Positions 2 through 27,342 of a stretch of 64,000 bases of DNA are shown here, one piece after another; position 1 is the stretch's first letter; every line of letters begins with the position of its first letter. The position numbers and the translations under genes were made by a program. The notes beneath the pieces were generated by a model that saw only the letters and a list, made by a program, of their open reading frames with translations, ran no database searches and had not been told where the DNA came from. The DNA comes from Dehalococcoidia bacterium. GTDB lineage: Bacteria > Chloroflexota > Dehalococcoidia > Lucifugimonadales > UBA3495. The stretch spans positions 9,187 to 73,186 of the forward strand of contig DAOULH010000042.1 of assembly GCA_034420475.1 (NCBI GenBank), written 5' to 3'.

Positions 2-2884
2 CTCACCGACGGCGTCCACTACTTCCTGCGCCGGGTGGGCGAGGAGAAACTGCCGCTGCGACGCGGGGAGACGCATCGCACCTTTGACCGGCCGGAACAG
101 GCGCCCCGGCTGCGGGAGTACCTGCACGGCATCATCTCGGCGCCGGCCGAAAACGTCAGCCCCACGGCGGAGAACCTGCAACGCTGCTTCGGCAGCGACT
201 CCGACGCCTTCCGCGCCGGCAACCTGCTCTTGCAGGAAGCCTACGCGGCCCGCCGCGACGACCCGACGGTGGCGGTGAAACGCCGGCTCTGGCAGGACCT
301 GCTCCAGGTGGCCCTGGGCAAGGACGCCGCCACGGCCGGCGACGAAAGCGACTGGCTGTTCATCCGGCACACCTACATCACCAGCCTGGTCGCCCTCATC
401 ATGCAGCAGCAACTGCTGGGCGACGTGGCCCGCCACGCCGCCGAAAGGCCGGACGCGCTGCTGAAAGGACGCATCCTGGCCGAGCAGTCCGACTTGCACG
501 GCGTCATCGACGCCGACCTGTTCACCTGGCCCACCGAGGCGGGAGAAAGCGCGTATCTGCGGGAAATCGCCCGCGTCGTCGAGCAATTTGACTGGACGCA
601 AAGCCCGCGCGAAGTGGCGCCCACCCTTTACCAGAACGTGATCACGCCGGACGAACGCAAGCGGCTGGGCGAATACTACACGCCGCGCTGGCTGGCCCAG
701 GAAATCACCGCAGCCGTGGTTGACGACCCGCTGCACCAACGGACGCTGGACCCATCCTGCGGAAGCGGCACGTTCATCGAAACCGCCATTGAGCGGATCA
801 TCAACCACGCCGGCGAACTGTCGGCGGCGGCAACGCTGCGGAAGTTGCAGGAGAACGTGGTCGGGATCGACATACACCCGGTGGCCGTCCAACTGGCCAA
901 GGCCACCTGGGTGATGGCCGCCGCCGGAACCATCCGCGCCGCCCGCGCCGAGAACACAGGCACCGGGACGGACACGGGCGCCGGCGCGGTGAGCGCGCCC
1001 ATCTACTTGGGCGATTCCATGCAGTTGCGCTACGACACCGGCACCCTGGCCGCCAGCCAGTCCATCGAACTGGAAACCCGCGAAACCCTGCCGGGCCACG
1101 CCGGGCCGGTCACCTTCAGCATTCCCAAGGAACTGGCCCGCCAGCAGGCCGACGTTGACCGGCTCATCTCCGAAATGGCCGCCGCCATCGACGAAGGGCG
1201 CGACGCGGAGCACGTCGCCGACGGCTACCCGATGTCTGACGAGTGCCGCCGGAGCATGCAGGCCGTCGCCGCCACGATGCGGGAACTGCACGCCGCCGGC
1301 CGCAACCACGTCTGGGCCTACTACATCCGCAACATGATCCGCCCGGCGGTGATCGCCGAGGAGAAGGTTGACCGCATCATCGGCAACCCGCCGTGGCTCA
1401 CCTACGGCCAGAGCGCGGACATCATCCGCGAGGAACTGCGCGGCATGAGCGAGCAGCGCTACCAGATCTGGGCCGGCGGCAAACTGGCCCCGCACCAGGA
1501 CATCGCCACGCTGTTCTACACCCGCTGCGCCGAGCTTTACGCCAAAGACGGCGCGGTCATCGGCATGGTGCTGCCCCACAGCGCCCTGCGCTCCGGACAA
1601 CACCTGAAATGGCGCGGCGGCAACTACAAGCGCAAGGGCGGGCGCAACGCGCCGAGCGTCAACGTGAACTTCAAGGTTCAAGAACCGTGGGACCTGGACA
1701 ACGTGACGCCGGACTTCTTTCCGATGCCGGCCAGCGTCGTGTTCGCGGAGTACGCGGCCGGCGAAACGGGCCGGCCGCTGGCGCCGGGAACCGTGGAGAC
1801 CTGGCGGGGCAACTGGCAGGACGACTACGCCGGCATCGCCAGGGTGTCGGAGGCCCTGCATCACGATGATGGCAAATTCAAGTCGCCCTACGCCGAACTT
1901 TCCAGTCAGGGGCCGACCATCCTTGACCGCCGGCTGTTCTTCGTTGACACGTTGCCGCACACTGCTGCTATTCCCGCCGCCAACAGCACCAACATCCGGG
2001 CACGTCAAGGCAGTCAGGATAACGTCAAGTACGATGGTCAACTGTACTTGCTGGACGGCGTGATACACAACGACCATTTGTTTGACGTGTACCTGAGTGA
2101 GTGCATTGCCCCTTACGTTGCGCTTGACCCGTTGCACGCAGCCCTGCCCGTGCATCGTCCGTCGATGACTATTCCCTTGCTACCCGACGACGGAGGGCTT
2201 GACGTAGCGGCGCTGAACTCCGCGATGCAACGCCGCTGGAATAATGCCTCTGCGATGTTCAGGGAAGCGCATCAAGGGCGCGTCATTATCGAGCTGTTTG
2301 ACAACCTGAACCACCTCAACAAACTCACCAGCCAGCTCGAATACTTGCAAGGCGCAATCGCCGGCGACGGAACTACGCGCATTGCCTACACCACGCAAGG
2401 CGAACCTACTGCGGCGCTAATCAGAGACAATCGTTCCATCGTAGACCACAAACTATTTCAGACGATTTGCCAATCCGAAGAAGAAGCCCATTACGTGCTT
2501 GCCATCATCAACAGCAACGAGTTGGCAACGCGAGCCAAGCCGTTCTGCACCACCAATTGGGCCAAGAAAATCAGAGACTTTCACAAGCACGGCTGGAAGT
2601 TGCCCATCCCGCGCTACGACGCCGGCGAGTCGCTGCACGTCAAGCTGAGCGAGTTGGGAGCGTCGGCGGAGTCGGAGTGCGCGGCGCTGATCGCGGGCAG
2701 CGGGATACTGGATCGTCCGGCCGGCGACGCCCAATCCCGCGCGGCCCGCCGCCTGCTGCGCCACGAGTGGCAGCCGGAGAGCGAAACGGCGCGTCTGATA
2801 GAATTGATGGTAGCCGAACTAATGAGCGACCCGGGGCAGGCTGACTTGGCGGGGCGGCAGATGACAACCCCAGGGACACGGTAA
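2..2884 (+). CDS. Large N6-adenine DNA methyltransferase (gamma-class, Eco57I/type IIG-like); 5-prime end runs off the window
   Basis: The frame is open from base 2 (LTDGVHYFLRR precedes the first listed start at 35). EYYTPRW, then DPSCGSGTF (SAM motif I), then IIGNPPW (motif IV), followed by about 500 aa of C-terminal extension. Confidence 0.85.
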   Translation, partial: LTDGVHYFLRRVGEEKLPLRRGETHRTFDRPEQAPRLREYLHGIISAPAENVSPTAENLQRCFGSDSDAFRAGNLLLQEAYAARRDDPTVAVKRRLWQDLLQVALGKDAATAGDESDWLFIRHTYITSLVALIMQQQLLGDVARHAAERPDALLKGRILAEQSDLHGVIDADLFTWPTEAGESAYLREIARVVEQFDWTQSPREVAPTLYQNVITPDERKRLGEYYTPRWLAQEITAAVVDDPLHQRTLDPSCGSGTFIETAIERIINHAGELSAAATLRKLQENVVGIDIHPVAVQLAKATWVMAAAGTIRAARAENTGTGTDTGAGAVSAPIYLGDSMQLRYDTGTLAASQSIELETRETLPGHAGPVTFSIPKELARQQADVDRLISEMAAAIDEGRDAEHVADGYPMSDECRRSMQAVAATMRELHAAGRNHVWAYYIRNMIRPAVIAEEKVDRIIGNPPWLTYGQSADIIREELRGMSEQRYQIWAGGKLAPHQDIATLFYTRCAELYAKDGAVIGMVLPHSALRSGQHLKWRGGNYKRKGGRNAPSVNVNFKVQEPWDLDNVTPDFFPMPASVVFAEYAAGETGRPLAPGTVETWRGNWQDDYAGIARVSEALHHDDGKFKSPYAELSSQGPTILDRRLFFVDTLPHTAAIPAANSTNIRARQGSQDNVKYDGQLYLLDGVIHNDHLFDVYLSECIAPYVALDPLHAALPVHRPSMTIPLLPDDGGLDVAALNSAMQRRWNNASAMFREAHQGRVIIELFDNLNHLNKLTSQLEYLQGAIAGDGTTRIAYTTQGEPTAALIRDNRSIVDHKLFQTICQSEEEAHYVLAIINSNELATRAKPFCTTNWAKKIRDFHKHGWKLPIPRYDAGESLHVKLSELGASAESECAALIAGSGILDRPAGDAQSRAARRLLRHEWQPESETARLIELMVAELMSDPGQADLAGRQMTTPGTR

Positions 2885-3531
2885 TGCCAGACACAAGCAC
2901 TATGCCAAACCCAACGGAAGAGCGACCGTTTGCAGTAACCGCCGAGAGATACAACGCGGAACACGCAAGCGGTAAAGTGACCGGTTCCAACTTCCCGTTT
3001 CATGAAGTACGAAACCTGCCAGGGTACGCGGAGCGGGCCACACCCGGTTTGACGGGAAGCGACGTGGTCAAGGAGTTAGCCCGCCACCTTGCGGAGTACG
3101 CAAAGCGAAACGGCTGTCCATTACCTTACGAACAACGCGATGTCGCAATCTACCTATGGGCCCAGGCCAGCCGTCGTATGCTGGAGTGGCAAGAGATACT
3201 GCATGCGGTGCGCGCGACTCGGAAGAGAGACCGACGCCCGCGGATCGCTCATTACTTCGGCTACCGCTCAATCATGCGAAAGCAAGGCAGAGCAAAGGAC
3301 CGGAAACTCATCAAACTGATCCGATACATCACGCAGGAAGGCGAATGCACCGGATGTGGGACAGAGTTCCCGTTTGAGCATCTAACCCTAGACAGAATCC
3401 AACCAGGCAAAGCAAACGGCACATACAACTTGCCCAACGTGCAACTGATGTGCCGGCCCTGCAACAACAGCAAGGGAGACAGCTTCGGCTTTTCGCCCCC
3501 CTCTAACCCATCGATGTCCCCGAAGCATTGA
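2884..3531 (+). CDS. HNH endonuclease
   Basis: The ATG overlaps the methyltransferase stop by 1 nt (TAATG). C-terminal CTGCG...HLTLDRIQPGKANGTYNLPNVQLMCRPCNNSKGD is an HNH/Cys-box motif. Confidence 0.8.
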   Translation: MPDTSTMPNPTEERPFAVTAERYNAEHASGKVTGSNFPFHEVRNLPGYAERATPGLTGSDVVKELARHLAEYAKRNGCPLPYEQRDVAIYLWAQASRRMLEWQEILHAVRATRKRDRRPRIAHYFGYRSIMRKQGRAKDRKLIKLIRYITQEGECTGCGTEFPFEHLTLDRIQPGKANGTYNLPNVQLMCRPCNNSKGDSFGFSPPSNPSMSPKH

Positions 3532-3554
3532 TAGAGCCGCTCAAGAACAGAATT

Positions 3555-3600
3555 ACGGCCAATATCGGCGAGGGGCCGCACGCCGGCAGTGGGGAGTGAG
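3555..3600. repeat. Fragment of the R1 element tail (GGCCAA..CGGCGAGGGGCCGCACGCCGGC..GAGTGAG)
   Basis: Near-identical to 4396-4437, the tail of R1 copy 2. Confidence 0.7.
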
Positions 3601-3643
3601 TTGACGGCCGCGCCAACCTCACGCGCGCCCGCTTTCGACTATG

Positions 3644-3750
3644 GTGTTGTCAGAATCAGGATTTGCGGGATTATGGGATTGGCAGGATTGGGTTGGTCGG
3701 CGCTGGCGCTGCGGCATCCTGGAAATCCTGCTTCTGACGATCCCCGGAGG
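3644..3750. repeat. R1 GGATT-rich palindromic element, copy 1 (short right arm)
   Basis: GTGTTGTCAGAATCAGGATTTGCGGGATTATGGGATTGGCAGGATTGGGTTGG...CATCCTGGAAATCCTGCTTCTGACGAT. Its 3-prime end supplies GGAGG and the ATG of the next gene. Confidence 0.9.
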
Positions 3751-3756
3751 ATAACC

Positions 3757-3981
3757 ATGAACCAACTGCTGCAAGAAGCCTTCAACCGGGCCGCCGCCCT
3801 GCCTGCCGAAGAACAGGACCGGCTCGCCAGATTCCTGCTGGCAGAGCTTGAGGCTGACCAAAAATGGGACCAGCTATTCGACCAGCCGGAATCGGATGAG
3901 TTGCTGAGCCGCCTCGCCATTGAAACTCTGGCCGACCACCGAGCCGGCGCCACCGCTCCATTGGACCCGGCCGACCTCTAG
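3757..3981 (+). CDS. Type II antitoxin-like protein (74 aa), copy 1
   Basis: GGAGG lies 7 nt upstream of the ATG. The stop is 2 nt before the toxin start. Small acidic helical protein (MNQLLQEAFNRAAALPAEEQDRLARFLLAELE...). A near-identical copy sits at 5837-6061. Confidence 0.65.
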   Translation: MNQLLQEAFNRAAALPAEEQDRLARFLLAELEADQKWDQLFDQPESDELLSRLAIETLADHRAGATAPLDPADL

Positions 3982-3983
3982 CC

Positions 3984-4253
3984 ATGCGTTCTTTCACGCG
4001 AGGCAGCTTCTGGAATGCCTACCGCCTGCTGCCCAACCACGTCAAACAGCAGGCCAGGAACGCGTACACCCTGTTCCAGGACAACCCGAGCCACCCGAGC
4101 CTGAATTTCAAGCGCGTCGGGCGCAGACATCCCGTTTACTCGGTGCGCGTCAGCGCCGGCTACCGCGCTCTTGGCGTGATGGAACAGAACGACATCATCT
4201 GGTTCTGGATCGGGTCACACCAAGAGTACGACCGACTACTCCGACGCAGTTAG
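3984..4253 (+). CDS. RelE/ParE-superfamily toxin (89 aa), copy 1, intact
   Basis: Tightly coupled to the upstream antitoxin. ...HPSLNFKRV...YSVRVSAGYRALGVMEQNDIIWFWIGSHQEYDRLL is the pattern seen in ParE/RelE-fold toxins. Confidence 0.7.
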   Translation: MRSFTRGSFWNAYRLLPNHVKQQARNAYTLFQDNPSHPSLNFKRVGRRHPVYSVRVSAGYRALGVMEQNDIIWFWIGSHQEYDRLLRRS

Positions 4254-4264
4254 CCCGACGGGGG

Positions 4265-4437
4265 GTGTTGTCAGAATCAGGATTTGCGGGATTACGGGAT
4301 TGGCAGGATTGGGTTGGTCGGCGCTGGCGCTGCGGCATCCTGAAAATCCGATAATCCTGGCAATCCAGGTTCTGACGATTTCCCGGCGGTATAAGGGCCA
4401 ACACCGGCGAGGGGCCGCACGCCGGCGAGGAGTGAGC
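4265..4437. repeat. R1 element, copy 2 (full length plus tail)
   Basis: The left arm has four GGATT units and the right arm has four AATCC units. The outer inverted repeat is GTCAGAA/TTCTGAC. The tail reads GGCCAACACCGGCGAGGGGCCGCACGCCGGCGAGGAGTGAGCC. Confidence 0.9.
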
Positions 4438-4637
4438 CGGCGGGTGCGCGCTGGATACTTTGAAACCGTTGACCTGAGGCACTTATTGTCGAGGGACACC
4501 TCAGCGAACCGCGTTTCGCCGATGGGTCCCTAAACATATTCTGGTCCATGGTCGAAGAACAGGCACAGTAACCCGTTGCGACCCGAATTGCCTTCAGATA
4601 CCCTGAAACCGACCCCCATCCTTCCCGGAGGAGCGAA

Positions 4638-4916
4638 ATGGGAAACCACCCGGCATCAGACTGCGACGCCATTGAGGATGCCCGCGAAACCATCGCCGGC
4701 ATTCGGGAACTCGAACAAGTCTCCGCTGCATTCAGGAAAGCATTGCAGACCTTGGACAATCCTCGCTCCGGCCTGTGGGCCGGCATGACCACCGACCTGG
4801 TAATGAGGTTCGCCCCGGACCAGGAAACCCTGGCCAGGGACCTTCGCGCCATCTCGCCCCAAGGGCCCGCCCGGACCAAGTTCCTGGACCCCCACCCCAA
4901 GGTCATGGTCCTATGA
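4638..4916 (+). CDS. Small protein (92 aa), upstream partner of the retropepsin-like protease, pair A
   Basis: GGAGG lies 6 nt upstream. Homologous to 6461-6733 (shared NPR..WAGM and LDPxP..M.L C-terminus). Its stop overlaps the protease start (ATGA). Confidence 0.6.
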   Translation: MGNHPASDCDAIEDARETIAGIRELEQVSAAFRKALQTLDNPRSGLWAGMTTDLVMRFAPDQETLARDLRAISPQGPARTKFLDPHPKVMVL

Positions 4917-5353
4917 TCCAAGGCTGGTTTGAAGACGCACAACCCACCATTATGGCGCGGGTCCTCATCCCCAGGCTCATGGTCAACGCCTACGCCACAT
5001 TCCTGGTCGACACCGGTTCCGACTCCACCGGAATCCATCCCGACCCCACCGTCTTTGCCGACCTGCCCTACGCGCAACTCGAAAACCCCTTCGTCATCAC
5101 CGGCGCAACCGGCAGCTCAAGGCGCTTCACCGAACCCGCGACCATCGCCATTGCCAGCGCCGACGGCGCCTCGGTTTACCACTACGACGTAGACATCTGG
5201 ATAGGGACGCCCCAAGATGTCCCTGCCGGCTTGCCCTGCATACTTGGTCAGGACATCCTCAAAGACCTGCGGATGACCCACGACCCCACGGACGACATCC
5301 TTACTTTCCATGTACGCAGAGCCGATCACACCATCACACTGTCCGGCCACTGA
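4913..5353 (+). CDS. Retropepsin-like (clan AA) aspartic protease, pair A
   Basis: FLVDTGSDST active-site motif and ILGQDIL flap-like motif. The ATG at 4913 overlaps the upstream stop. Confidence 0.75.
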   Translation: MIQGWFEDAQPTIMARVLIPRLMVNAYATFLVDTGSDSTGIHPDPTVFADLPYAQLENPFVITGATGSSRRFTEPATIAIASADGASVYHYDVDIWIGTPQDVPAGLPCILGQDILKDLRMTHDPTDDILTFHVRRADHTITLSGH

Positions 5354-5548
5354 CCGACCCGGCGCCAACCCCAGACACCAGACAAGCCGTTGCACATCGC
5401 GACGCTCACACCGGTCAGGTCGCGGTAGCGGCCCCCACGCCTCGCCGACTACACCGGAACGAGTGCGCCGGTCGGCATTGACACCACACCGACCACCCTC
5501 GCGTTCCACGTGAAGAGTGAGCGTAAAACAGTGGTTTTGGGTCTAACC

Positions 5549-5585
5549 TGCACAAATAATCGCCTCAAAACCGATTATTTGTGCA
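5549..5585. other. Perfect AT-rich hairpin (14-bp stems TGCACAAATAATCG / CGATTATTTGTGCA, 9-nt loop)
   Basis: Read directly. It sits in an AT-richer stretch between protease A and R1 copy 3. Confidence 0.8.
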
Positions 5586-5706
5586 AAGCTGACGAAACCC
5601 CACGGCATAATAGATGACATGATCCGCACGCTGGAATTCGCCCTGCGTTACTGAACCCAGATAACTGCGATCACGCCAACCTCGCGCGCGCCCGCTTGCA
5701 ACCGTA

Positions 5707-5830
5707 GTGTTGTCAGAATCAGGATTTGCGGGATTACGGGATTGGCAGGATTGGGTTGGTCGGCGCTGGCGCTGCGGCATCCTGAAAATCCGATAATCCT
5801 GGCCATCCTGGCGCTGACGATCCCCGGAGG
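5707..5830. repeat. R1 element, copy 3 (full length)
   Basis: Nearly identical to copy 2 over both arms. As in copy 1, it ends in CCCCGGAGGATAACC followed by ATG. Confidence 0.9.
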
Positions 5831-5836
5831 ATAACC

Positions 5837-6061
5837 ATGAACCAACTGCTTCAAGAAGCCTTCAACCGGGCCGCCGCCCTGCCTTCCGAAGAACAGGACC
5901 GGCTCGCCAGATTCTTGCTGGCAGAGCTTGAGGCTGACCAGAAATGGGACCAACTATTCGACCGGCCGGAATCAGATGAGTTGCTGAGCCGCCTCGCCAT
6001 TGAAACTTTGGCCGACCACCGAGCCGGCGCCAGTACTCCATTGGACCCGGCCGACCTCTAA
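5837..6061 (+). CDS. Type II antitoxin-like protein (74 aa), copy 2
   Basis: Differs from 3757-3981 at only a few residues (A17S, Q43R, AT-to-ST). Confidence 0.65.
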   Translation: MNQLLQEAFNRAAALPSEEQDRLARFLLAELEADQKWDQLFDRPESDELLSRLAIETLADHRAGASTPLDPADL

Positions 6062-6063
6062 CC

Positions 6064-6334
6064 ATGCGTTCTTTCACCCGCGGCGGCTTCTGGAATGCCT
6101 ACCGCCTGCTGCCCAACCACGTCAAACAGCAGGCCAGGAACGCGTACACCCTGTTTCAGGACAACCCGAGCCACCCGAGCCTGAATTTCAAACGCGTCGG
6201 CCGCAGACACCCCGTTTTACTCGGTGCGCGTCAGCGCCGGATACCGCGCTCTTGGCGTGATGGAACAGAACGACATCATCTGGTTCTGGATCGGGTCACA
6301 TCAAGAGTACGACCGGCTGCTCCGACGCGGTTAG
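6064..6334 (+). pseudogene. RelE/ParE-like toxin, copy 2, frameshifted
   Basis: CCCGTTTTACTCGG here against CCCGTTTACTCGG in copy 1 gives a +1 T insertion near 6215. The original stop TAG at 6332-6334 is then out of frame. Confidence 0.8.
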
Positions 6335-6347
6335 CCCGACAGCGGGG

Positions 6348-6414
6348 GTGTCGTCAGAATCAGGATTTGCGGGATTTTGGGATTGGCAGGATTGGGTTGG
6401 CCGGCGCTGCGGCA
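6348..6414. repeat. R1 element, copy 4 (left arm and loop only)
   Basis: GTGTCGTCAGAATCAGGATTTGCGGGATTTTGGGATTGGCAGGATTGGGTTGGCCGGCGCTGCGGCA, after which similarity ends. Confidence 0.85.
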
Positions 6415-6460
6415 GATGCACAACACATGGATTGAACAACTGACCAAGAACGGAGGCGGA

Positions 6461-6733
6461 ATGAGCGAACCCATTCCCACAACGCCCAAAGAAGCGGCGC
6501 GCATCTCTGCCCAAATGGCAGAATACGAAGCCGTCTCGACCTGCCTGCGGGCCGAAACCGAAGGGATGAGCCAACAGAATCCGCGCCAGTGGGCGGGCAT
6601 GAACTCCGACCGGGAGCTCACCCTGGCCGAAACGCTGCCGGAACTGCTGGCAAAACTCAGGCCCGGAGGCGACCGCCAACGCATGGTGGCAGTACTGTAC
6701 CTCGACCCCGACCCGCCGGAGATGATCCTGTGA
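6461..6733 (+). CDS. Small protein (90 aa), upstream partner of the retropepsin-like protease, pair B
   Basis: GGAGG lies 6 nt upstream of the ATG at 6461. Homolog of 4638-4916. Its stop overlaps the protease GTG (GTGA). Confidence 0.6.
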   Translation: MSEPIPTTPKEAARISAQMAEYEAVSTCLRAETEGMSQQNPRQWAGMNSDRELTLAETLPELLAKLRPGGDRQRMVAVLYLDPDPPEMIL

Positions 6734-7143
6734 TCGCCGGTTACTACCGCGACCGCCGGCCAATGATGAGAACCCACGTGACGTTGCCCAGACTGGATGC
6801 TGAAGGCCAAATAGACATCCTGGTCGATACCGGCGCGCAGGTCACGTGCATCCTCGGGCCGGACAGCGACGTACTGAACCTGCCTTATGAGTCCCTCGGA
6901 CAACCGGCGACGCTCCACGGCGTTGGCGGCGCCACCGTCATGTACCGAGAGCCGGCGCTCCTCACGTTCCGGGACTCAGAAAACGGCCGGATCTACCGGT
7001 ACCGCACCGAAGTCAGGATCGGACCCCGCGCCGGATCGGCCAACATTCTGCCGTCCCTGCTGGGCCAGGACATCCTCCAGCACTGGAGCCTGCTCCACGA
7101 ACCGGCTACCGGAAGACTTGAAGCCACGCCACTCACCGGCTGA
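6730..7143 (+). CDS. Retropepsin-like (clan AA) aspartic protease, pair B
   Basis: ILVDTGAQVT and LLGQDIL motifs. Paralog of 4913-5353. The GTG start overlaps the upstream stop. Confidence 0.7.
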   Translation: MIAGYYRDRRPMMRTHVTLPRLDAEGQIDILVDTGAQVTCILGPDSDVLNLPYESLGQPATLHGVGGATVMYREPALLTFRDSENGRIYRYRTEVRIGPRAGSANILPSLLGQDILQHWSLLHEPATGRLEATPLTG

Positions 7144-7167
7144 CGCTGCCCCAGGCTCCTGCGCCGT

Positions 7168-7276
7168 CCGCGTCAGCGCCGGCTACCGCGCTCTTGGCGT
7201 GATGGAACAGAACGACATCATCCGGTTCTGGATCGGGTCACATCAAGAGCACGACCGGCTGCTCCGACGCGGTTAG
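7168..7276 (+). pseudogene. 3-prime fragment of a third RelE/ParE-like toxin gene
   Basis: VRVSAGYRALGVMEQNDIIRFWIGSHQEHDRLLRRG* matches the C-terminal third of 3984-4253. No 5-prime part is present. Confidence 0.8.
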
Positions 7277-7288
7277 CCCGACAGCGGG

Positions 7289-7430
7289 GATGTTGTCAGA
7301 ATCAGGATTTGCGGGATTTTGGGATTGGCAGGATTGGGTTGGCCGGCGCTGACGCTGCGGCATCGTGAAAATCCGATAATCCTGGCAATCCTGGCGCTGA
7401 CGATTTCCCGGCGGGATAAAGGCCAACATC
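7289..7430. repeat. R1 element, copy 5 (full length)
   Basis: Both arms are present. The tail is diverged (GGGATAAAGGCCAACATCGCG). Confidence 0.9.
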
Positions 7431-7580
7431 GCGAGCTGGCTCACGCCGGTTTCCCCGGGCGGGGTTTTGCCAATGGCGCGCTTGACGGTAACCCGAAAGG
7501 GACGTTATGCTGATCCTGATTTGCCCCCCGTCCGCACGAGCTGGCTTGCGCCAGTTTCCCCGGCCGGGGTTTTTTTGATT

Positions 7581-8171
7581 ATGGACACCATAGTTTTCAT
7601 TGACGGCCAGAATCTCTACCACTCGGCAAAGGACGCTTGGCACGGCAACCCTATGGACAAAGCATCGTCATATGCTTGGCCTAGTTACGATGTCGAAAAA
7701 ATAGCCGACGCCCTGGTCAGCAGAGAGGCCGGCCGTGTTCTGTCCCAAATCCGCTTCTATACTGGCGTTCCGAGTCGCTCCGGTAACCCGTATTGGCACG
7801 ATTTTTGGTTAAATAAGCTCCGCTACTTGGCCCGCCGGGGCATCTACGTTTATCAGGGCAAGGTCAACCGGGGCGGCCAGGAAAAGGGCGTTGACGTCAG
7901 CCTGGCCCTGGACTTGGTGCAGGCTACTCACGAACGTCGCTACGACGTCGCCATCATCGTCAGCCAGGATTCCGACTTCAGCCCGGCGGTCAGCCTGGCC
8001 AAGCAGGTTGCCGCGTCGTAGAACCGGACGCTCACTTTTGAATGCGCGTTCCCCGTGGGTCCAGGCAGCGCTTTCCGCCGCGGCATCCACGGCACAAACT
8101 GGGTTAGGATAGACCGGGCGATGTACGACGCCTGCCTGGACCCCCGAGACTACCGCCCCGCCAGACGCTGA
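7581..8171 (+). pseudogene. NYN/LabA-like domain protein, C-terminal part disrupted
   Basis: MDTIVFIDGQNLYHS...EKGVDVSLALDL...IIVSQDSDFSP is NYN-like. A stop at 8019-8021 is followed, in shifted frames, by further coding-like sequence (FPVGPGS..., then IDRAMYDACLDPRDYRP*), consistent with a disrupted C-terminus. Confidence 0.6.
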
Positions 8172-8175
8172 CCCC

Positions 8176-8236
8176 AGCCCAATCCTGAAAATCCCGCTTC
8201 TGACGATTTCCCGGCGGGGTAACGGCCAACGTTGGC
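8176..8236. repeat. R1 element, copy 6 (right arm and tail only)
   Basis: CCCAATCCTGAAAATCCCGCTTCTGACGATTTCCCGGCGGGGTAACGGCCAACG. Confidence 0.8.
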
Positions 8237-8304
8237 GTCCCGGAGCAAGCCGCACTGGCGGAGCGGCCGTTGGCAGCGCAGGATAGTACAAGGACGACCG
8301 CCAA

Positions 8305-8808
8305 TTGATGCGCCATATCAACCACGTCTGGAAGCTGATCCCGGCCGCATCCGCCGGTCTGGCCATAGCGGCCATCGTCCGACTCAACCCGGCCAATATC
8401 AATCTCAAAAGCCCCGACTGGCGCTACACGGTCTCGTTTGCCCAGGACCATGCCTTTGAGTACACTGTGCTTGCCACCGCTATTATGGTGCTGGTCCACT
8501 GGTTCAAGGGCGACATTCACGCCGGGGCCGCTGCCATCGCCAATGCCGCCGCAAACGCGCTGGGCGTTCCGCCACTTTCGTATGCCTACGCGCTGCTCCT
8601 GGAGACGCTCAAAATGGTGTTGCAAAAAATCAAGCGAGACCTTTTCAACTCAATACGTTCCGACGGGCGCAAAGAGGGCCGCGAAGAGGGCCGCGAAGCC
8701 GGCATCAAGCATCTGCTCCGACAGCAAAACCCCCAAGCCGACGAAGCGGAGATTCAGCGCCGCTACGAAGAGGCCATCACCACCATGAGCGACGACCCAC
8801 GGACCTGA
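8305..8808 (+). CDS. Hypothetical membrane-associated protein (167 aa)
   Basis: ORF with hydrophobic segments and a charged C-terminus (GRKEGREEGREAG). No family recognised. Confidence 0.45.
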   Translation: MMRHINHVWKLIPAASAGLAIAAIVRLNPANINLKSPDWRYTVSFAQDHAFEYTVLATAIMVLVHWFKGDIHAGAAAIANAAANALGVPPLSYAYALLLETLKMVLQKIKRDLFNSIRSDGRKEGREEGREAGIKHLLRQQNPQADEAEIQRRYEEAITTMSDDPRT

Positions 8809-8911
8809 TCGAATGCTCGCGCCAGAAGCCTTCAACCGCGCCGCCGACCTGCCTTCTGAGGAAAGTGAGCAGCGCATCGACCCCCAATCCAGCAAATCGA
8901 GGAGCGATGCA

Positions 8912-9267
8912 ATGGGAACCGTAGTGGTCACGATAGGTATCGGAGACCCGCAGGGCCGGAGGTTCGAAGACATTGATGTAATTGTGGACACCGGCTCAAC
9001 CTTCACTGTAGTACCCAGAACCACATTGCAGCGGCTGGGAGTGCCGGTGGAACGCTCAGTGCAATCCGAACTGGCGGACGGAAGCAACGCGCCGGTGGAC
9101 ATCGGAAGGACCATGGCAGACTTGAAGGACAGCAATTCCCCACGCCGGTGATCTTCGCCGAAGCGGGCGAGCCCACTTTGCTTGGCGTGGTCACGCTGGA
9201 AGAGGCGCTGCTGGCCGTAGATCCCGTGGCCGGACGCCTCATACCTACAACCGTGCTGCGCCTTTAG
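8912..9267 (+). pseudogene. Retropepsin-like aspartic protease (short ~120-aa type), frameshifted
   Basis: GAGGAG lies 7 nt upstream of the ATG at 8912. VIVDTGSTFT motif. The frame breaks near 9125-9135. The next frame continues QQFPTPVIFAEAGEPTLLGVVTLEEALLAVDPVAGRLIP...*, matching the layout of the intact paralog at 43153-43518. 8813-8870 upstream is a remnant of the antitoxin 5-prime end (EAFNRAADLPSEE). Confidence 0.7.
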
Positions 9268-9297
9268 ATCAGGAAGCCGGAAGCCAAGAGGAACTGA

Positions 9298-9337
9298 GGA
9301 GATTGCCGAGAATGCTTGGCGGCATTCTCGCAATGAC
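9298..9337. repeat. Half-copy-like hairpin of the R2 family (GAGATTGCC...CTCGCAATGAC)
   Basis: GAGATTGCCGAGAATGCTTGGCGGCATTCTCGCAATGAC has the same terminal words as the right inner arm of R2. Confidence 0.6.
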
Positions 9338-9436
9338 GGTTTGAGGAAAGCGGCAGAGTGCGCGCGGCCGGCGCGGATGCAAACGGAATAGGCCCGTGCT
9401 AAACTTGGGCCAACTGCGCCCGCCGGAGGTAGAGGT

Positions 9437-11647
9437 ATGCTGCGCATCTACAACACCCTGACTAAGAACGTCGAGGAGATCCGGCCGATGACGCCCGGCA
9501 AGGTGTCCATGTACACTTGCGGGCCGACGGTGTACCGCTATGCGCACATCGGCAACCTGCGCACCTACCTGATGGCCGACTGGATCCGCCGCATCCTGGT
9601 GGCCGACGGCAACGAGGTTTACCACATCAAGAACATCACCGACGTGGGCCACATGCGGCAGGAACTGGCCGAAGCCGGCGGCGACAAGATGATCATGGCC
9701 GCGCTGGCCGAGGGCAAGTCCCTACAGGAAATCGGCGAGTTCTACGCGGACGTTTTCTGGCAGGACGAGGAGCGGATCAACATCCTGCCGGCCCACGTGT
9801 TTCCCTGGGCGTCGCACCACATTCCGGAAATGCTGGAGATGGTGGGCACGCTGATGAACAACGGTTCCGCTTACGAAGCGGGCGGCAACATCTACTTCAA
9901 CGTCAACAGTTATCCGGAGTACGGCAAGCTGTCCCGCAATTTCGGCGGCGACCTGCTGGAGGGAGTGCGCGCCGAGGCTGACCCGCTGAAGCGCGATCCG
10001 CGTGACTTCACCCTCTGGAAAGCGGCGGAGCCGGGTCGGGACGTGAAGTGGGACAGCCCCTGGGGCGAGGGTTTCCCCGGCTGGCACATTGAATGCTCGG
10101 CCATGGCGCACAAGTACCTGGGCGAGAAATTCGACATCCACACGGGCGGCGTCGACAACGTGTTCCCGCACCATGAGGACGAGATCGCGCAGAGCGAGGG
10201 GGCGTTCGGGCAGCAGCACGTCAACTACTGGGTGCACGGACAGCACTTGCTGGCGGACGGCGCCAAGATGGCGAAGTCGGCCGGGAACGTGTTCCTGATC
10301 GAGGACCTGGCGACGCGGGGGTTCGATCCTCTGGCATTCCGTTACCTGTGCATGACCGTGCGCTATCGGCATCGGATGAACTTCACCTTCACGTCGCTGC
10401 GGGCGGCGGAGAAGGCGCTGACCGGCCTGCGGAACCGCATCTGGGTGTGGCGGAATATGTCCGGCAATGGCGCGGGGCACCATGCCCTGAGCGCCGAGGG
10501 CCAGGAATGGAGCGGCAAGTTCTGGGACGCAGTGCACAACGACCTGGACCTGCCTACCGCGCTGGCAATCACCTGGGCCATGGCGCGGTCAGAACTGCCG
10601 GCGGCGGACAAGCTGGAACTGATGCTGGACTTTGACCGGGTATTCGGGCTCGACCTGGACCAGATTCCGGAGCGGTACGAGATCGGCACACAGAACAGCG
10701 CTGCGCTGGAGCGCCGGGCTACGTTGCGGCAACAGGCAGCGTATCGGGATGCCGACGCGCTGCGGTCGCAGATGGTGGAAGGCGGGATGGTGGTGCAGGA
10801 CACGGGCGTTGCGACGCTGGTGCGACCGCAGACACCGCTGGAACTGCAAGAGGCGCGGTGGCCTTCAGTGTCCGCTTCGCGGGAAGTGCCTTCCGTCCTG
10901 GACCAACCTGACCTCTACGACTTCACCTTCCTGGTGAATGCCTACGACTACGTGGACGACGTGCGCCGGTGCGTGGAGGCCGTGCTGCGGCACACCGGCG
11001 GAGCATCGGTTGAGATCATCGTGGTGGACAACGGGTCCACGGACGGCACGGCGGAGTATCTGGAAGAGGCACAGGCGGAGCACGCAAACGTTCGGGTCAT
11101 CCACTGTGACCACGTGGTGGGCGACGCCGCCGGCAAGAACATCGGGTTGAAGCAGGCGCGCGGCCGGTACATCGTATTGCTGGACGCCTCGACCGAGGTG
11201 GTCGGGGACATTTTGACTCCGGTGGCGGAACACCTGGCGGACAACAGCATCGGCGTGTTCGGCCCCTATGGGTTGACCACCGACGATATGCAGCACTTCC
11301 ACGAGGAAGTGGACCGGGGCGACGCCGACGCGATGCAGGCGTACTGCATGGCGTTCCGGCGGGCCGACCTGCCCAGCGTGGGGTTGATGCACGAGTCCTT
11401 CCGGTTCTACCGGAACCTGGACATCGACTACTGCTTCCAGTTCAAGAACGCCGGATACCGGGTAGTGTGCGACAGCAGCCTGCCGCTGGTGCGCCACGAG
11501 CATCGCCAGTGGGAAGAGTTGGAGGAGAACCAGCGCGACGAGCTGAGCCGGAAGAACTTCGGCCGGTTCCTGAAGCGGTGGGGCAACCGCCCGGACCTGC
11601 TGATCAACCCCAATGCGCGGGGGTTCGATACGGGTTTCCGGCACTGA
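9437..11647 (+). CDS. cysS: Cysteine--tRNA ligase fused to a C-terminal family-2 glycosyltransferase domain (736 aa)
   Basis: CGPTVY..AHIGN (HIGH-like), [21 protein letters not shown] and KMAKSAGN (KMSKS-like), with a full CysRS C-terminal region to about aa 470. Then [10 protein letters not shown]...[12 protein letters not shown]...LDAST, typical of GT2. Confidence 0.8.
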
Positions 11648-25544: not shown

Positions 25545-26246
25545 TTACGCGACCGCAATCACCAATCCTTCCAATAGTTCCAACCACTGCCCGAAATGGG
25601 GACATTCTCCGCGAATGGTATCGAGACCAATTGCAGAAACCGCCGCCGTTCCGTCCACCGGCTTTTGATAATCGGGCGCTAAATTCTCGATCCGTTTGGA
25701 CGGAGCGGTCACTTGGGAATCATTGATATCTTCCGGGGTGCTGAAGCGATCTCTTATTGCCTGGAAACTACCGGCGAGTTCGGGGTGATCAATGGCCTGC
25801 GCGAATCTATCACAGTCGCTGAACAGCATGGCTTCAAACTCGTGCATCATCACGTAGGGAATAAGCCGGGCAGGGTTGAATCCATCACCCATCGAGGCTG
25901 CCACATCGGACCGGATGGCATTTTCAACGTGAATCGCCCTTTCCGGGAGAGGGAGGTGCATCGCCTCCGCGCGGCCCGGCCAGCTCCTCGGTCCGCTGGA
26001 GGGCAGGCCATAATAATCGACCATGGTTGTCACGATGAGGCCGGCGTCCTGGCGGAGTTGATTCTGGATGGCGCGGCGGGTTTCCGTCCATGGCCGGATG
26101 CCACCGCGGTGCCTTCTCTGGTGTTGGCCTCCCATTAGTCTGGCGGAGACGTTGATGTAACCGGCGCGATACAGATGCGGCGCAAGGACATCGTTTACGA
26201 AAGTTTCCTCAGTCTCACCTTCAACGAGGACAAAGAGTCGTGTCAT
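25545..26246 (-). CDS. DUF4276-like protein (TOPRIM-like small partner)
   Basis: RLFVLVEGETEETFV at the N-terminus (TOPRIM-type acidic motif), MVDYYGLP, MHEFEAMLF and SQVTAPSKRIENL. The ATG overlaps the ATPase stop (ATGA). Confidence 0.7.
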   Translation of the reverse strand: MTRLFVLVEGETEETFVNDVLAPHLYRAGYINVSARLMGGQHQRRHRGGIRPWTETRRAIQNQLRQDAGLIVTTMVDYYGLPSSGPRSWPGRAEAMHLPLPERAIHVENAIRSDVAASMGDGFNPARLIPYVMMHEFEAMLFSDCDRFAQAIDHPELAGSFQAIRDRFSTPEDINDSQVTAPSKRIENLAPDYQKPVDGTAAVSAIGLDTIRGECPHFGQWLELLEGLVIAVA

Positions 26247-27328
26247 GGGGCGGACAGTCTGTCGCTCCGGTATTCCGGGCTCGGCCGGCCTCCAAACTCA
26301 TTCGTTTCCCACAGTTGCCCCAGGCTGTAATCCTCCAGCCACACTTCCAACCTCTCGGGGTCAAGCCGCTCGAACCTGGCTTCCCCATTCACCCGGTTGG
26401 CCACGATAACGTCTTCCGGCTCAAAGTGGTCCAATAACCTTGGGGATTGGGTGGCCATGATTACCTGACCGTACACTGCCGCCTTCTTGACCATGGCGGC
26501 CAGCATGGTAACCGCGTATGGATGCAGCCCCAACTCCGGCTCGTCCAGCAGGATCACCGAAGGCCGCAGCAGTTTCGGCTGCAACAGCAGGGTCGTCAAG
26601 GCGATGAATCGCAGCGTGCCGTCGGATAAGGACGCTGCGTTGAAGTAAGCGTCAGACCCTTTGTGCCGCCATTCGAGGAGGATCGTGTCCGGGTTCAACG
26701 CCTGCGGCTCAAGCTTGAAATCGTCAAAAAACGGCGCCACCAACCTGACCGTTCGCCTGATTTGCTCGTAGGAAAACGAATGCTTGCTCCGCAGCAAGTA
26801 CAGAAACGCGGCCAAGTTAGAACCATCAGGACGCAGGAAACGATTATCGTGCAAATCAGCCGTCTTCTTCATCGGCGACGCCCGGCTCGTATCGTGGAAA
26901 TGGTACGAAACCCACGGGTCAACATTGATAAAATCCCGTATCAGCGCCGGAGTGTCGTCTGAATTCAGTCCAGGTAGCGACGTCGGCCACTTACTACAGG
27001 CCTGTTCAACTAATGCCAGACGATCATCAAAATACATCGGCTCCAGCGTTAGCCGGTACCAATTCTTGTCGTCGAAAGCAATGACGATATTGATGTCCTC
27101 CGTGATGCGTGAACCAAAATGGAGCACACGTTCCGCTCCCCCAGCCTGCACCGTGAAATAGCCTAGCCTACCGGCAACCACTTCGCGCACCAGCGAGAAC
27201 ACCTCAAGGAAGTTTGACTTGCCCGACCCATTGGCCCCGATAAGCACGTTGATGGGGTTCAGTTTCAGCCGATCAACGGCCTTGATGCTCTTGAAACCTC
27301 TGATCGTGATGTTATCCAGTGTCGGCAT
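26243..27328 (-). CDS. ABC/SMC-like AAA ATPase (AAA_21-type), 361 aa
   Basis: Walker A GANGSGKSN, signature-like SLSDGTLRF, Walker B ILLDEPELGLHP, then ATQSP. The start is MPTLDN at 27328. The track ORF extension to 27901 overlaps the SDR gene. Confidence 0.8.
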   Translation of the reverse strand: MPTLDNITIRGFKSIKAVDRLKLNPINVLIGANGSGKSNFLEVFSLVREVVAGRLGYFTVQAGGAERVLHFGSRITEDINIVIAFDDKNWYRLTLEPMYFDDRLALVEQACSKWPTSLPGLNSDDTPALIRDFINVDPWVSYHFHDTSRASPMKKTADLHDNRFLRPDGSNLAAFLYLLRSKHSFSYEQIRRTVRLVAPFFDDFKLEPQALNPDTILLEWRHKGSDAYFNAASLSDGTLRFIALTTLLLQPKLLRPSVILLDEPELGLHPYAVTMLAAMVKKAAVYGQVIMATQSPRLLDHFEPEDVIVANRVNGEARFERLDPERLEVWLEDYSLGQLWETNEFGGRPSPEYRSDRLSAP

Positions 27329-27342
27329 GGTTGCACCGCCAG

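Follow-up and report, generated by a model that had tools for sequence, protein, structure and literature searches.

The window, a 64,000-nucleotide stretch of the Dehalococcoidia contig DAOULH010000042.1, contains an islet of small addiction- and defence-type genes between a type IIG restriction gene, which is accompanied by an HNH gene, and cysS (Table 1). The islet consists of small same-strand modules with imperfect palindromes, termed R1, between them. This arrangement was as originally predicted and includes four full and two partial R1 copies, a duplication, and broken genes. The toxin of toxin-antitoxin (TA) module 1 matches Pfam ParE_like (49.5 bits, cutoff 24.4; homologue search for the module, n=370), and family scans show no recognisable DNA-binding domain in the antitoxin. 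Three genes are broken, as had been read from the sequence: the toxin of TA module 2 has a +1 frameshift, the T run at 6215–6218 being one nucleotide longer (alignment with module 1), the NYN gene is interrupted in frame by CAG→TAG at 8019–8021, and the third protease gene has a -1 frameshift near 9126 relative to the intact 118-aa gene of L058, one of the related genomes and contigs introduced below. The NYN gene is intact in L080, L058, and L130, and the L130 copy matches PADLOC HEC-09 (E = 1.6e-10). Three retropepsin-like calls were made, and the Pfam cutoff is passed only by 6730–7143 (RVP, 26.9 bits, cutoff 20.7) and 8912–9151 (Asp_protease_2, 30.9 bits, cutoff 24.3), the call at 4913–5353 (gag-asp_proteas, E = 5.5e-4) being below it. 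The 92-aa/retropepsin pair is a paralogue of the 90-aa/retropepsin pair, and the latter is kept in L130–L133. Pfam, NCBIfam, and PADLOC scans of the 167-aa ORF were all empty; its homologues in L058 and L130 occupy different array positions. The same two carry a full antitoxin gene where the window has the 5' remnant.

Table 1 Features of the islet and its anchors, numbered from the first nucleotide of the window
Feature	Position	Strand	Details
Type IIG restriction enzyme–methyltransferase, left anchor	35–2884	+	PADLOC REase_MTase_IIG, E = 6.4e-54
HNH endonuclease gene	2884–3531	+	Pfam HNH, 33.3 bits, cutoff 21.4
R1 right-flank remnant, then R1-1 conserved outer-left flank	3552–3648		Remnant 3552–3605; outer-left flank 3606–3648
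R1-1 hairpin	3649–3738		Left arm 4 GGATT boxes, right arm 2; covariance-model match 3645–3742, E = 4e-14
TA module 1	3757–4253	+	Antitoxin 74 aa (3757–3981); ParE-like toxin 89 aa (3984–4253)
R1-2 and conserved right flank	4270–4437		Hairpin 4270–4376, 4+4 boxes, fold -29.4 kcal/mol, z = -4.2; flank 4377–4437, GATTTCCCGGCGG…GGAGTGAG; covariance-model match 4266–4380, E = 2e-28
92-aa ORF and overlapping retropepsin-like gene	4638–5353	+	ORF 4638–4916; protease 4913–5353
AT-rich perfect 14-bp hairpin	5549–5585		Low-GC spacer; inverted repeat I25; not R1
R1-3 unit	5663–5818		Outer-left flank 5663–5711; hairpin 5712–5818; covariance-model match 5708–5822, E = 2e-24
TA module 2	5837–6334	+	Antitoxin 5837–6061; frameshifted toxin copy
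R1-4	6353–6444		Left arm and loop 6353–6413 intact; weak covariance-model match, E = 6.2
90-aa ORF and overlapping retropepsin-like gene	6461–7143	+	ORF 6461–6733; protease 6730–7143
Toxin 3' fragment	7166–7276	+	Repeat family D2, 94% identity to 6224–6420
R1-5	7295–7431		Hairpin 7295–7401 and right flank; covariance-model match 7291–7405, E = 1e-24
NYN-domain gene, 196 codons	7581–8171	+	ORF 7581–8021; Pfam NYN, E = 1.9e-18
R1-6	8174–8233		Solo right arm 8174–8204 and right flank; weak covariance-model match, E = 0.29
167-aa ORF	8305–8808	+	No family match
Antitoxin 5' remnant	8813–8870	+	Repeat family D5, 86% identity to 3771–3813
Decayed right-arm boxes, then third clan-AA protease gene	8882–9267	+	Boxes 8882–8899; gene 8912–9267
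cysS-like gene, right anchor	9437–11647	+	Named from reading the translation

R1 is an imperfect palindrome of ~108-110 nt. Its basic unit is a 41-nt arm, in which GTC[A/T]GAA[G/T]C precedes four GGATT boxes spaced 8–9 nt, and the arm occurs solo, in tandem arrays, or as the inverted pair that makes the ~108-nt hairpin. Conserved flanks extend ~45 nt to the left and ~60 nt to the right of the hairpin. The outer-left flank of R1-1 shows homology with outer arms in other subfamilies (GAAAGCGGGYRCGCRTGAG), and the R1-1 left flank recurs in L109, L058, L080, and L130; the remnant that precedes it belongs to repeat family D14 (3552–3587 versus 4391–4426, 89%). The R1 copies fold as hairpins with energies of -22 to -31 kcal/mol and z-scores of -2.0 to -4.2. 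Strings from the R1 core were counted 5–6 times in the window, whereas shuffles predict 0, and a covariance model trained on family members from other genomes and three window copies found no match below E = 0.2 in the 64 kb beyond the R1 copies in Table 1. All copies are confined to 3.6–8.2 kb of the window, with six pieces within 4.6 kb and none in the remaining 59 kb. This strong clustering runs counter to the reading we favour below; it is partly explained by local duplication, and some targeting may also be involved.

Individual copies have different histories. R1-3 is 96–97% identical to R1-2, varying with the stretch compared, and is a chimera with arms like R1-2 and R1-5 and a right flank like R1-1. 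R1-4 had been taken for a left arm only; in fact the AATCC boxes of its right arm are replaced, and the terminal CTGAC (6440–6444) and the flank with the ribosome-binding site (RBS) are retained. R1-6 is a solo right arm, as proposed, located after the NYN stop codon in all four NYN-bearing genomes or contigs (the window, L080, L058, and L130), and is therefore part of the NYN module. Four hairpins end 8–10 nt upstream of a GGAGG RBS, and the RBS of the antitoxin gene lies ~8 nt past the R1-1 hairpin. We note that hairpins lie very close to gene ends and RBSs, an attC-like trait that also speaks against the favoured reading.

The array contains a duplication of ~735 bp (3606–4340 versus 5679–6420). 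The duplication is real, but its copies are similar rather than near-identical, with 89.7% identity overall, rising to ~94% when a 17-nt indel in the R1 right arm is left out. The duplicated unit starts with the left flank of one R1, and its right end lies within the loop of the following copy.

A related interval is present in five other genomes or contigs (L109, L080, L084, L058, and L130), two of them anchored by both the type IIG gene and cysS. According to blastn, the type IIG anchor is conserved in L109, L080, L058, and L130, and the cysS-like anchor in L080, L084, and L109 (84–90% identity); L130 also has a stretch homologous to the HNH gene. Module content and order differ in each of the six, with RM, HNH, TA, NYN (HEC-09-like), PaREP1, and Panacea-domain genes in differing combinations, and R1 or R1 pieces are found at many junctions (in L084 and L109, for example, an R1 left arm lies upstream of the counterpart of the third protease). 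The high plasticity predicted for the locus is thus supported. The junctions do not fall at one crossover point. They are imprecise, with gene fragments, partial hairpins, and microhomology involving short homologies such as GGC and the CGCG between the toxin 3' fragment and the retropepsin gene (compared with L130).

The R1 copies within one genome evolve in concert: R1-2, R1-3, and R1-5 are 93–96% alike, versus 79–90% when compared with other genomes' copies, positional counterparts included. Among relatives, the R1 loop type is found almost solely at the present locus, which points to local amplification. In orthologous copies the arms are 89.5% conserved, versus 74% for flanks and 73% for loops, suggesting either that a protein binds them or that copies continue to homogenise one another. 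The hairpin stem also shows compensatory changes at two positions in the terminal helix. Arm conservation and these two changes are compatible with a structural or protein-binding function, which the favoured reading does not account for.

R1 belongs, as a local subfamily, to a palindromic repeat dispersed through intergenic DNA. The 4-box pattern was found in at least 117 stretches in at least 57 genomes, mostly of Chloroflexota/Dehalococcoidia, with some Bacteroidota, Verrucomicrobiota, and Poribacteria and one cyanobacterium. The search pattern excluded the GTCWGAA head, which is nonetheless conserved in the matches, and 45 full hairpins were extracted. Genes adjoining the hairpins at 40 loci encode MFS transporters, luciferase-like oxygenases, hydrolases, GcvT/H, GyrA, ThiC, and phage capsid, and terminase and portal genes are bracketed by hairpins in three genomes. 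No recombinase or transposase was among the 25 gene families listed, of 102, beside hairpins at these 40 loci. The hairpins frequently occupy the entire intergenic gap, as in the window, and are found between genes in convergent, divergent, and co-directional arrangement. Most members are neighbours of ordinary genes and have been retained at orthologous positions in different species. The family has no match in Rfam, in plasmid, phage, and viral-contig collections, or in our literature search.

These results bear on the suggestion that the array is a chromosomal integron or attC cluster, with R1 as attC and an integrase encoded outside the window. Its appeal is clear: small ORFs, TA modules among them, lie closely packed on one strand; R1 has a length typical of attC sites, and its copies inside the array are homogeneous; the locus varies among relatives; and integrons are reported in Chloroflexi, and integrase-less attC clusters are common (PMC4889954). 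However, no RYYYAAC…GTTRRRY pair is present on either strand of 3300–9600, in agreement with the original prediction. The hairpin is conserved in sequence, through its GGATT boxes, across phyla and not in shape alone; solo arms and tandem arm arrays exist; and copies elsewhere adjoin housekeeping and phage genes. Ragged junctions leave gene fragments, and TA and retropepsin modules also exist in other, R1-free contexts. Searches detected no recombinase in the window or at the related loci, and no integrase in the window, at the 117 loci, or in L130; they were sensitive only for L130 (precomputed Pfam list); the BLAST probes were weak outside Pfam-annotated loci, as pairwise search missed even a true tyrosine recombinase. 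We believe that the integron reading is largely refuted and extremely improbable.

The hairpin may instead be the recombination site of an unrecognised, non-integron cassette system with a trans-acting enzyme, for example an HUH/RAYT-like one acting on folded single strands. Conserved arms with compensatory changes in the terminal helix, their excess conservation over the flanks, R1 pieces at many of the module junctions across the six genomes or contigs, and modules packed tightly between hairpins are what such a system might leave, and the presence of the family in several phyla would suggest a conserved partner protein. We consider this very unlikely, as no candidate enzyme recurs near hairpins, most members stay beside ordinary genes at orthologous sites, and junction positions vary by case and cut through genes. 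Apparent cases of cargo inside the loop dissolved on inspection.

Independent transposition of each R1 as a MITE, with the transposase encoded elsewhere in the genome, is quite unlikely as well. Terminal inverted repeats starting TGTC…GACA, an element size of 110–180 nt, loop-sharing subfamilies at non-orthologous sites in several genomes, and spread across phyla fit this explanation. Nevertheless, no target-site duplication was seen, no autonomous element with R1 ends was found among the 117 loci, and the plasmid, phage, and viral-contig collections gave no match. Moreover, the array copies share one loop type nearly confined to the locus and arose together with duplicated flanking genes.

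Boxes at 8–9-bp spacing resemble the cooperative operator arrays of MetJ- and omega-type repressors. R1 could accordingly be kept for a function, as a protein-binding operator array or an intercistronic RNA hairpin setting mRNA processing or stability, with the mosaic as a by-product. Besides the box spacing, the four hairpins close to GGAGG sites, the conservation of arms above flanks, and the arm arrays upstream of a paralogous secreted-protein family in OZ220464.1 are in line with this view, which we regard as unlikely overall. In the promoter scan R1-1 is the only copy to pass, and promoter-like sites are in total no more numerous than in shuffles, which goes against the earlier idea that R1 serves as a common promoter. 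No DNA-binding domain can be recognised in the antitoxin, and hairpins are indifferent to gene orientation. Informative sites for a strand test were too scarce, at 4 G·U against 2 A·C mismatches. The same modules are found without R1: TA pairs with a toxin protein 87–93% identical in at least five other contexts without arms, the TA module in L118–L129, and the retropepsin pair in L131–L133.

Taken together, we think that the locus is probably a strain-variable defence/TA islet that recombination between REP/ERIC-like repeats has remodelled, and that R1 is not attC. Variable module sets, the duplication ending in an R1 loop, and concerted evolution support recombination-driven spread of a shared element, which the original prediction had named as its alternative. 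R1 copies and common leaders would provide portable homology and fragile palindromes. Between R1 copies, unequal crossing-over and gene conversion could then duplicate, delete, and swap modules, and breaks in or beside hairpins, repaired through short homology, could leave partial hairpins and gene fragments. The pathways would be RecA-type exchange and palindrome-stimulated breakage, and R1 presumably has no active, enzyme-directed part in moving modules.

The ERIC/IRU elements of enterobacteria are imperfect palindromes of ~127 nt, intergenic, often within same-strand gene clusters, and retained at orthologous sites, and are not known to have a transposase. R1 resembles them in all these features of size, form, and location, but shares no sequence similarity, has arms of four GGATT boxes with mismatched spacers, occurs also as solo and tandem arms, and has hosts in several phyla. 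Like REP/BIME/REPIN repeats, which have RAYT transposases and are known rearrangement substrates, R1-family units exist singly, as inverted-pair hairpins, and in clusters, dispersed in intergenic DNA. A conserved head and a palindrome define the REP superfamilies, whose units are 20–40 nt with GTAG or CGTC heads (PMC3733652), whereas the R1-family unit is 41 nt, is not itself palindromic, and begins with GTCWGAA as its head; none of the R1-family copies was seen to have a RAYT-like gene nearby. With attC sites and clusters, including Vibrio VCRs, R1 shares length, imperfect palindromes between packed same-strand small ORFs including TA genes, homogeneity within the array, and array variation among relatives, but it lacks R''/R' cores and IntI, its boxes keep their sequence across phyla, its family has housekeeping genes as neighbours, and junctions are imprecise. 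MITEs such as the Neisseria Correia element have similar terminal inverted repeats, a size of 100–200 nt, and intergenic positions near gene starts; the R1 family differs in having neither target duplication nor a parent insertion sequence, and its copies within a genome are few and diverged. Finally, the varied RM, HNH, TA, NYN, PaREP1, and Panacea sets between conserved anchors recall defence islands and RM-adjacent hotspots, but turnover of this islet appears to be tied to a resident palindromic repeat rather than to an integrase-bearing mobile element.

The interval at 3.5–9.3 kb of the window consists of small-gene modules with an imperfect palindrome of ~110 nt, R1, between them (R1-1, R1-2, R1-3, and R1-5 are full copies, R1-4 and R1-6 partial ones). 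The original prediction had proposed this palindrome from reading the sequence, and it proved real: R1 core strings occur 5–6 times versus 0 expected from shuffles, the copies fold into long hairpins, and a covariance model run on the whole 64 kb found the four full copies (E = 4e-14 to 2e-28) and two further weak partial copies, nothing more. In each arm, four GGATT boxes at a spacing of 8–9 nt come after GTCAGAA(T/G)C, and two inverted arms surround a ~27-nt loop, with GTCAGAA…TTCTGAC at the ends. In the stem the boxes pair with each other, and the intervening spacers are mostly unpaired. Conservation continues past the hairpin into a left flank of ~45 nt (…CGCCAACCTCACGCGCGCCCGCTTTCAACCGCGGTGTT) and a right flank of ~60 nt (GATTTCCCGGCGG.ATAAGGGCCAAC…GGAGTGAG); in other subfamilies the equivalent flanks make a further, outer palindrome. 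All six pieces lie within 4.6 kb, with 0 in the remaining 59 kb, and the hairpins are packed tightly against gene ends and RBSs. R1-1 is distinguished from the other copies by two lost boxes. R1-4, previously read as a left arm only, retains the terminal CTGAC. R1-6 is indeed a right arm only, and it belongs to the NYN module, as this solo arm sits after the NYN stop codon wherever NYN is present (four genomes or contigs).

Every gene-sized feature of the interval is on the + strand, in agreement with the proposed same-strand layout, and family scans upheld the toxin, retropepsin-like protease, and NYN calls (see the table). The stop codon of the 74-aa ORF lies 3 nt ahead of the start codon of the ParE-like toxin, and the two genes are kept together in all contexts examined. 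The ParE_like match and the small upstream partner fit a putative type II TA module of the ParE/RelE superfamily; no DNA-binding domain was recognised in the antitoxin by family scans. The duplication of the TA segment (3606–4340 and 5679–6420) is real, with an identity of about 94% outside a 17-nt indel rather than the near-identity claimed, and one extra T accounts for the frameshift noted in the second toxin. Comparison with relatives likewise bore out the broken NYN gene (CAG→TAG at 8019–8021) and the frameshift in the last, third protease gene (-1 near 9126).

Several further features of the islet are worth recording. The NYN leader contains a 37-nt unit twice (7432–7468 and 7537–7573, 105 nt apart), in which a GC hairpin is combined with a run of T (CCCCGG.CGGGGTTTT); 8 nt separate the end of the second copy from the NYN start codon, and the same leader is found in three relatives (L080, L058, and L130). 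The 90–92-aa ORF and the overlapping retropepsin-like gene form a two-gene module that moves together through unrelated contexts. This pair has no significant NCBIfam or PADLOC assignment, and we regard it as a candidate TA-like or defence pair. A short ORF starting with ATGATCCGCACSCTGRAATTCGCCCTGCG (MIRTLKFALRY…) adjoins the TA module, before or after it, in several genomes, and is a remnant only in the window and L080. Other defence-type genes of the window are a DUF4276 and AAA_21 ATPase pair and, in a patch of low GC, a fusion of an N6_N4 methyltransferase with HNH; neither has GGATT arms near it. To the right of the islet, the cysS-like gene (9437–11647) encodes 736 aa, presumably far above the length expected for a cysteinyl-tRNA synthetase, and the C-terminal third of its product looks like a family-2 glycosyltransferase domain when the translation is read.

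Features of the islet, module orders in related intervals, and locations of associated elements (coordinates without a locus name are those of the window).
Feature	Location	Strand	Basis or content
Type IIG restriction enzyme–methyltransferase, large gene	35–2884		
HNH gene	2884–3531	+	family scan
ParE-like toxin	3984–4253	+	ParE_like 49.5 bits, cutoff 24.4; 74-aa partner ORF upstream
Retropepsin-like genes, two	4913–5353, 6730–7143	+	family scan; each overlapping a 90–92-aa ORF at its end
NYN nuclease	7581–8021	+	family scan
Third clan-AA protease	8912–9151	+	family scan
90–92-aa ORF and retropepsin module	4638–5353, 6461–7143; L130 7079–7761; L131 4943–5625; L132 9732–10414; L133 828–1510		
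ATGATCCGCACSCTGRAATTCGCCCTGCG ORF start	~5616–5655; L080 ~2893–2925; L118 ~9290; L126 ~5380; L127 9310; L129 ~8640		
Other defence-type genes	25545–27901, 48641–50473		
Module order	L109		one unrelated ORF → R1 left arm, its right boxes decayed → third protease gene
Module order	L084		R1 left arm → third protease gene → cysS
Module order	L080		another ORF → full R1 → intact NYN → solo right arm → directly cysS
Module order	L058		start: family hairpin and reverse-strand ATPase-like gene → R1 → 167-aa-type ORF → antitoxin and toxin tail; rest: R1 → PaREP1 → antitoxin fragment → NYN → right arm → intact third protease gene
Module order	L130		start: HNH → left arm → 91-aa ORF → 170-aa ORF → antitoxin → toxin fragment → right arm; middle: NYN → right arm → 90-aa and retropepsin pair → full R1; end: Panacea-domain pair → PaREP1 → third protease gene
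GGTTAGAGTTGCTAACC leader	L058 4850–4880, 6215–6245; L130 7000–7030, 8975–9010		
Hairpins bracketing terminase	L037 293–400, 1772–1859; L041 597–2848, ~4214; L048 3052–3159, 4506–4593		
Arms by secreted-family genes	L008, L012, L015, L030, L052, L067, L079, L088, L090, L096, L111, L112		OZ220464.1
Arms by secreted-family genes	L014		CBDEUH01

The related interval was found in five other genomes or contigs. Both anchors, the type IIG restriction gene on the left and the cysS-like gene on the right, are common to L080, L109, and the window; the restriction gene is found in L058 and L130, and cysS in L084. The module sets differ among these relatives, and therefore the islet shows presence/absence and order polymorphism, as its predicted plasticity implied. 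Many of the module junctions are occupied by R1 or R1 pieces. A leader with the palindrome GGTTAGAGTTGCTAACC also recurs ahead of modules of different kinds (the 90-aa pair, PaREP1, and the third protease gene), and appears to be a second portable homology piece beside R1.

The layout had been likened to a chromosomal integron cassette array or an attC cluster lacking an integrase. Chloroflexi have integrons and integrase-less attC clusters are common (PMC4889954), so the idea was reasonable, but it is not supported by the defining features. When both strands of 3300–9600 were scanned with a regular expression, no RYYYAAC…GTTRRRY pair 40–135 nt apart emerged, in line with the absence of such cores noticed earlier. 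attC sites are conserved in structure and not in sequence, whereas the boxes of the R1 family are conserved in sequence across phyla. Instead of the precise boundaries of attC-type R' crossover, partial hairpins are found in the array together with a fragment from the 3' end of a toxin gene and a remnant of the 5' end of an antitoxin gene. At least five other contexts, most of them of the defence type, contain TA pairs that lack GGATT arms and have toxins 87–93% identical to that of the window; their homology to the window stops ~15 nt ahead of the antitoxin start codon on one side and ~8 nt past the toxin stop codon on the other; the 90-aa and retropepsin pair is also found elsewhere without arms. 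The TA and retropepsin modules are thus independent of R1. A complete integron needs an integrase close by, which an attC cluster of the integrase-less kind does not. Neither a recombinase nor a transposase turned up in the window, in 117 loci containing R1-type arms, or in L130, with insensitive BLAST probes: the tblastn search of the window and the 117 loci with tyrosine-recombinase probes (IntI1 and XerD) gave 0 matches and carries little weight, because the probes also missed a genuine integrase of L131. No integrase was present in the precomputed Pfam families of L130 or among ORFs from low-GC parts of the window.

Two other arrangements were considered and rejected. In one, genes are carried as cargo in the loop of a split hairpin. 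At L058 2108–3712, the left arm adjoins its own decayed right arm; between R1-4 and R1-6 of the window, the former keeps its terminal CTGAC and the latter is part of the NYN module. In the other, an identical breakpoint between GCGGCA and GATG reflects site-specific cutting. The sequences downstream of this junction are homologous, and decayed right-arm boxes follow it in L084 and L109; the homology indicates that the junction is shared by descent.

We consider it most likely that the mosaic arose from recombination among resident repeats. The junctions cut inside genes (toxin middle, toxin tail, and antitoxin head), and their positions vary, within or next to R1. Microhomology is seen at the junction of the retropepsin module and the toxin fragment (CGCG) and at the site of the 167-aa block (GGC), which is present in the window and absent in L080. 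The duplicated unit extends from the R1 left flank to inside the loop of the following R1, and R1-3 is mixed, with arms like those of R1-2/R1-5 and a right flank like that of R1-1. R1-2, R1-3, and R1-5 are 93–96% identical to each other versus 79–90% to copies of other genomes, the latter figure including copies whose flanks mark them as positional counterparts, and the R1 loop type is nearly confined to this locus. The duplication ends, the R1-3 chimera, the box loss of R1-1, the within-genome likeness, and the confined loop point to exchange between R1 copies. Unequal crossing-over, gene conversion, and slippage among the resident repeats would create the mosaic, and deletions initiated at fragile palindromes may contribute further; these pathways are suggested by what is generally known of rearrangements at repeats and palindromes. 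The original prediction had offered recombination-driven expansion of a shared promoter/operator element as its alternative. The recombination part is supported by these observations; the promoter part is not supported, as only R1-1 matches a promoter scan.

Beyond the window, R1 belongs to a dispersed family. A search pattern of the four boxes only, with the head GTC[A/T]GAA left out, matched at least 117 stretches in at least 57 genomes. The matches listed are mostly from Dehalococcoidia and other Chloroflexota, with Bacteroidota, Verrucomicrobiota, Poribacteria, Balneolaceae, and a Dolichospermum among the other hosts. The head is found in nearly all matches though it was unspecified, and these are therefore related elements rather than chance matches. 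The 117 loci contain 276 arms as solo arms, tandem arrays, and inverted pairs; 22 neighbouring pairs are inverted (hairpin) and many are in the same orientation, including tandem arrays, and no AATCC-then-GGATT hairpins were seen among these loci. We extracted 45 full hairpins and aligned 31 of them. Of the 28 stem pairs, most show little or no variation, with the GGATT/AATCC boxes conserved over the 31 copies and between phyla and a terminal helix of GTCAGAAKC / GMTTCTGAC. Compensatory change is seen at only two of these pairs, one of which is GC 13 times and UA 11 times. Between orthologous copies, identity is 89.5% in the arms, 74% in the flanks, and 73% in the loops. A hairpin often occupies the whole intergenic gap, whatever the gene orientation. 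Its neighbours at 40 loci are ordinary genes (transporters, oxygenases, hydrolases, GcvT/H, GyrA, and ThiC), with no recombinase among the families listed, and clustering of ORFs near family copies gave no recurrent protein as a candidate enzyme. No match was obtained in an Rfam scan of 3000–9600 (E ≤ 1) or by BLAST of R1 against plasmid and phage collections; the four-box pattern had 0 matches in viral contigs and the strict R1 pattern 0 in metagenome contigs, and literature searches with arm sequence strings returned nothing relevant.

Some family members have recurrent surroundings. Three genomes have prophage-like clusters in which hairpins flank the gene for the terminase large subunit and also lie ahead of the portal gene; in one of these genomes (L041), five tandem arms are directly upstream of, or within, the annotated terminase start. 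Genes of a paralogous family of secreted proteins (~1100 aa) have solo arms near them, in most cases 70–800 nt upstream (downstream at two loci); these are often tandem, with 2–9 units at a period of 84–173 nt, which hints that the arm may bind a protein or serve in regulation. A terminal-helix variant, GTCTGAAG, contains CTGAAG (e.g. L041 2743 and L077 4692), which we take to be an Eco57I/AcuI-type recognition site. The array adjoins the type IIG enzyme gene, and homologues of this gene in L126 and L128 have an Eco57I domain; the co-occurrence is probably a coincidence.

The strong clustering of R1, its tight packing, and the conservation of the arms above their surroundings leave room for an active role, for which a binding protein, an RNA-level function, and a dedicated recombination enzyme are candidates. 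Overall, we think it improbable that the GGATT-box arm is a cross-phylum protein-recognised element with such a role, whether as a recombination/mobilisation site or as a DNA/RNA host signal. Under the first option, it may belong to an undescribed system that builds arrays of small defence and TA modules; under the second, it may serve the host as a conserved signal of structured DNA or RNA. If either were true, the islet would display the GGATT-box element at work. The family, which ranges from Dehalococcoidia to Bacteroidota and a cyanobacterium and has no Rfam or literature-string match, would deserve description in its own right if it has a dedicated binding protein.

Recombination among resident repeats remains our preferred reading, and the islet beside the restriction system appears to turn over via a resident palindromic repeat rather than an integrase-bearing element. 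For poorly studied phyla, this calls for caution in recognising integron-like arrays by eye: the array has small ORFs on one strand, TA modules, and inter-unit palindromes, yet the defining tests failed.

Among known elements, MITEs resemble the family in that its arms are terminal inverted repeats. They differ in that the flanks of the 45 hairpins contain no direct repeat (target-site duplication), and in some subfamilies the flanks prolong the palindrome instead. There is no transposase enrichment near family copies, and left-arm-then-right-arm pairs 0.3–4 kb apart number only three (L003, L058, and L021); judging from translations read by eye, the cargo of the first two is not a transposase and appears to be an oxidoreductase in L003 and an ATPase-like protein in L058. 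A REP unit is a 20–40-nt palindrome with a GTAG or CGTC head (PMC3733652), whereas the arm that forms the unit of this family measures 41 nt and carries four GGATT boxes behind a GTCWGAA head, and no gene for a RAYT (Y1 transposase) recurs in the 8-kb loci around its copies. Like REPs and REPINs, the family has members scattered through intergenic DNA, singly, as inverted doublets, or in clusters. We place R1 with the intergenic palindromic repeats known as REP, ERIC, and MITE elements, and it probably shapes this defence/TA islet.
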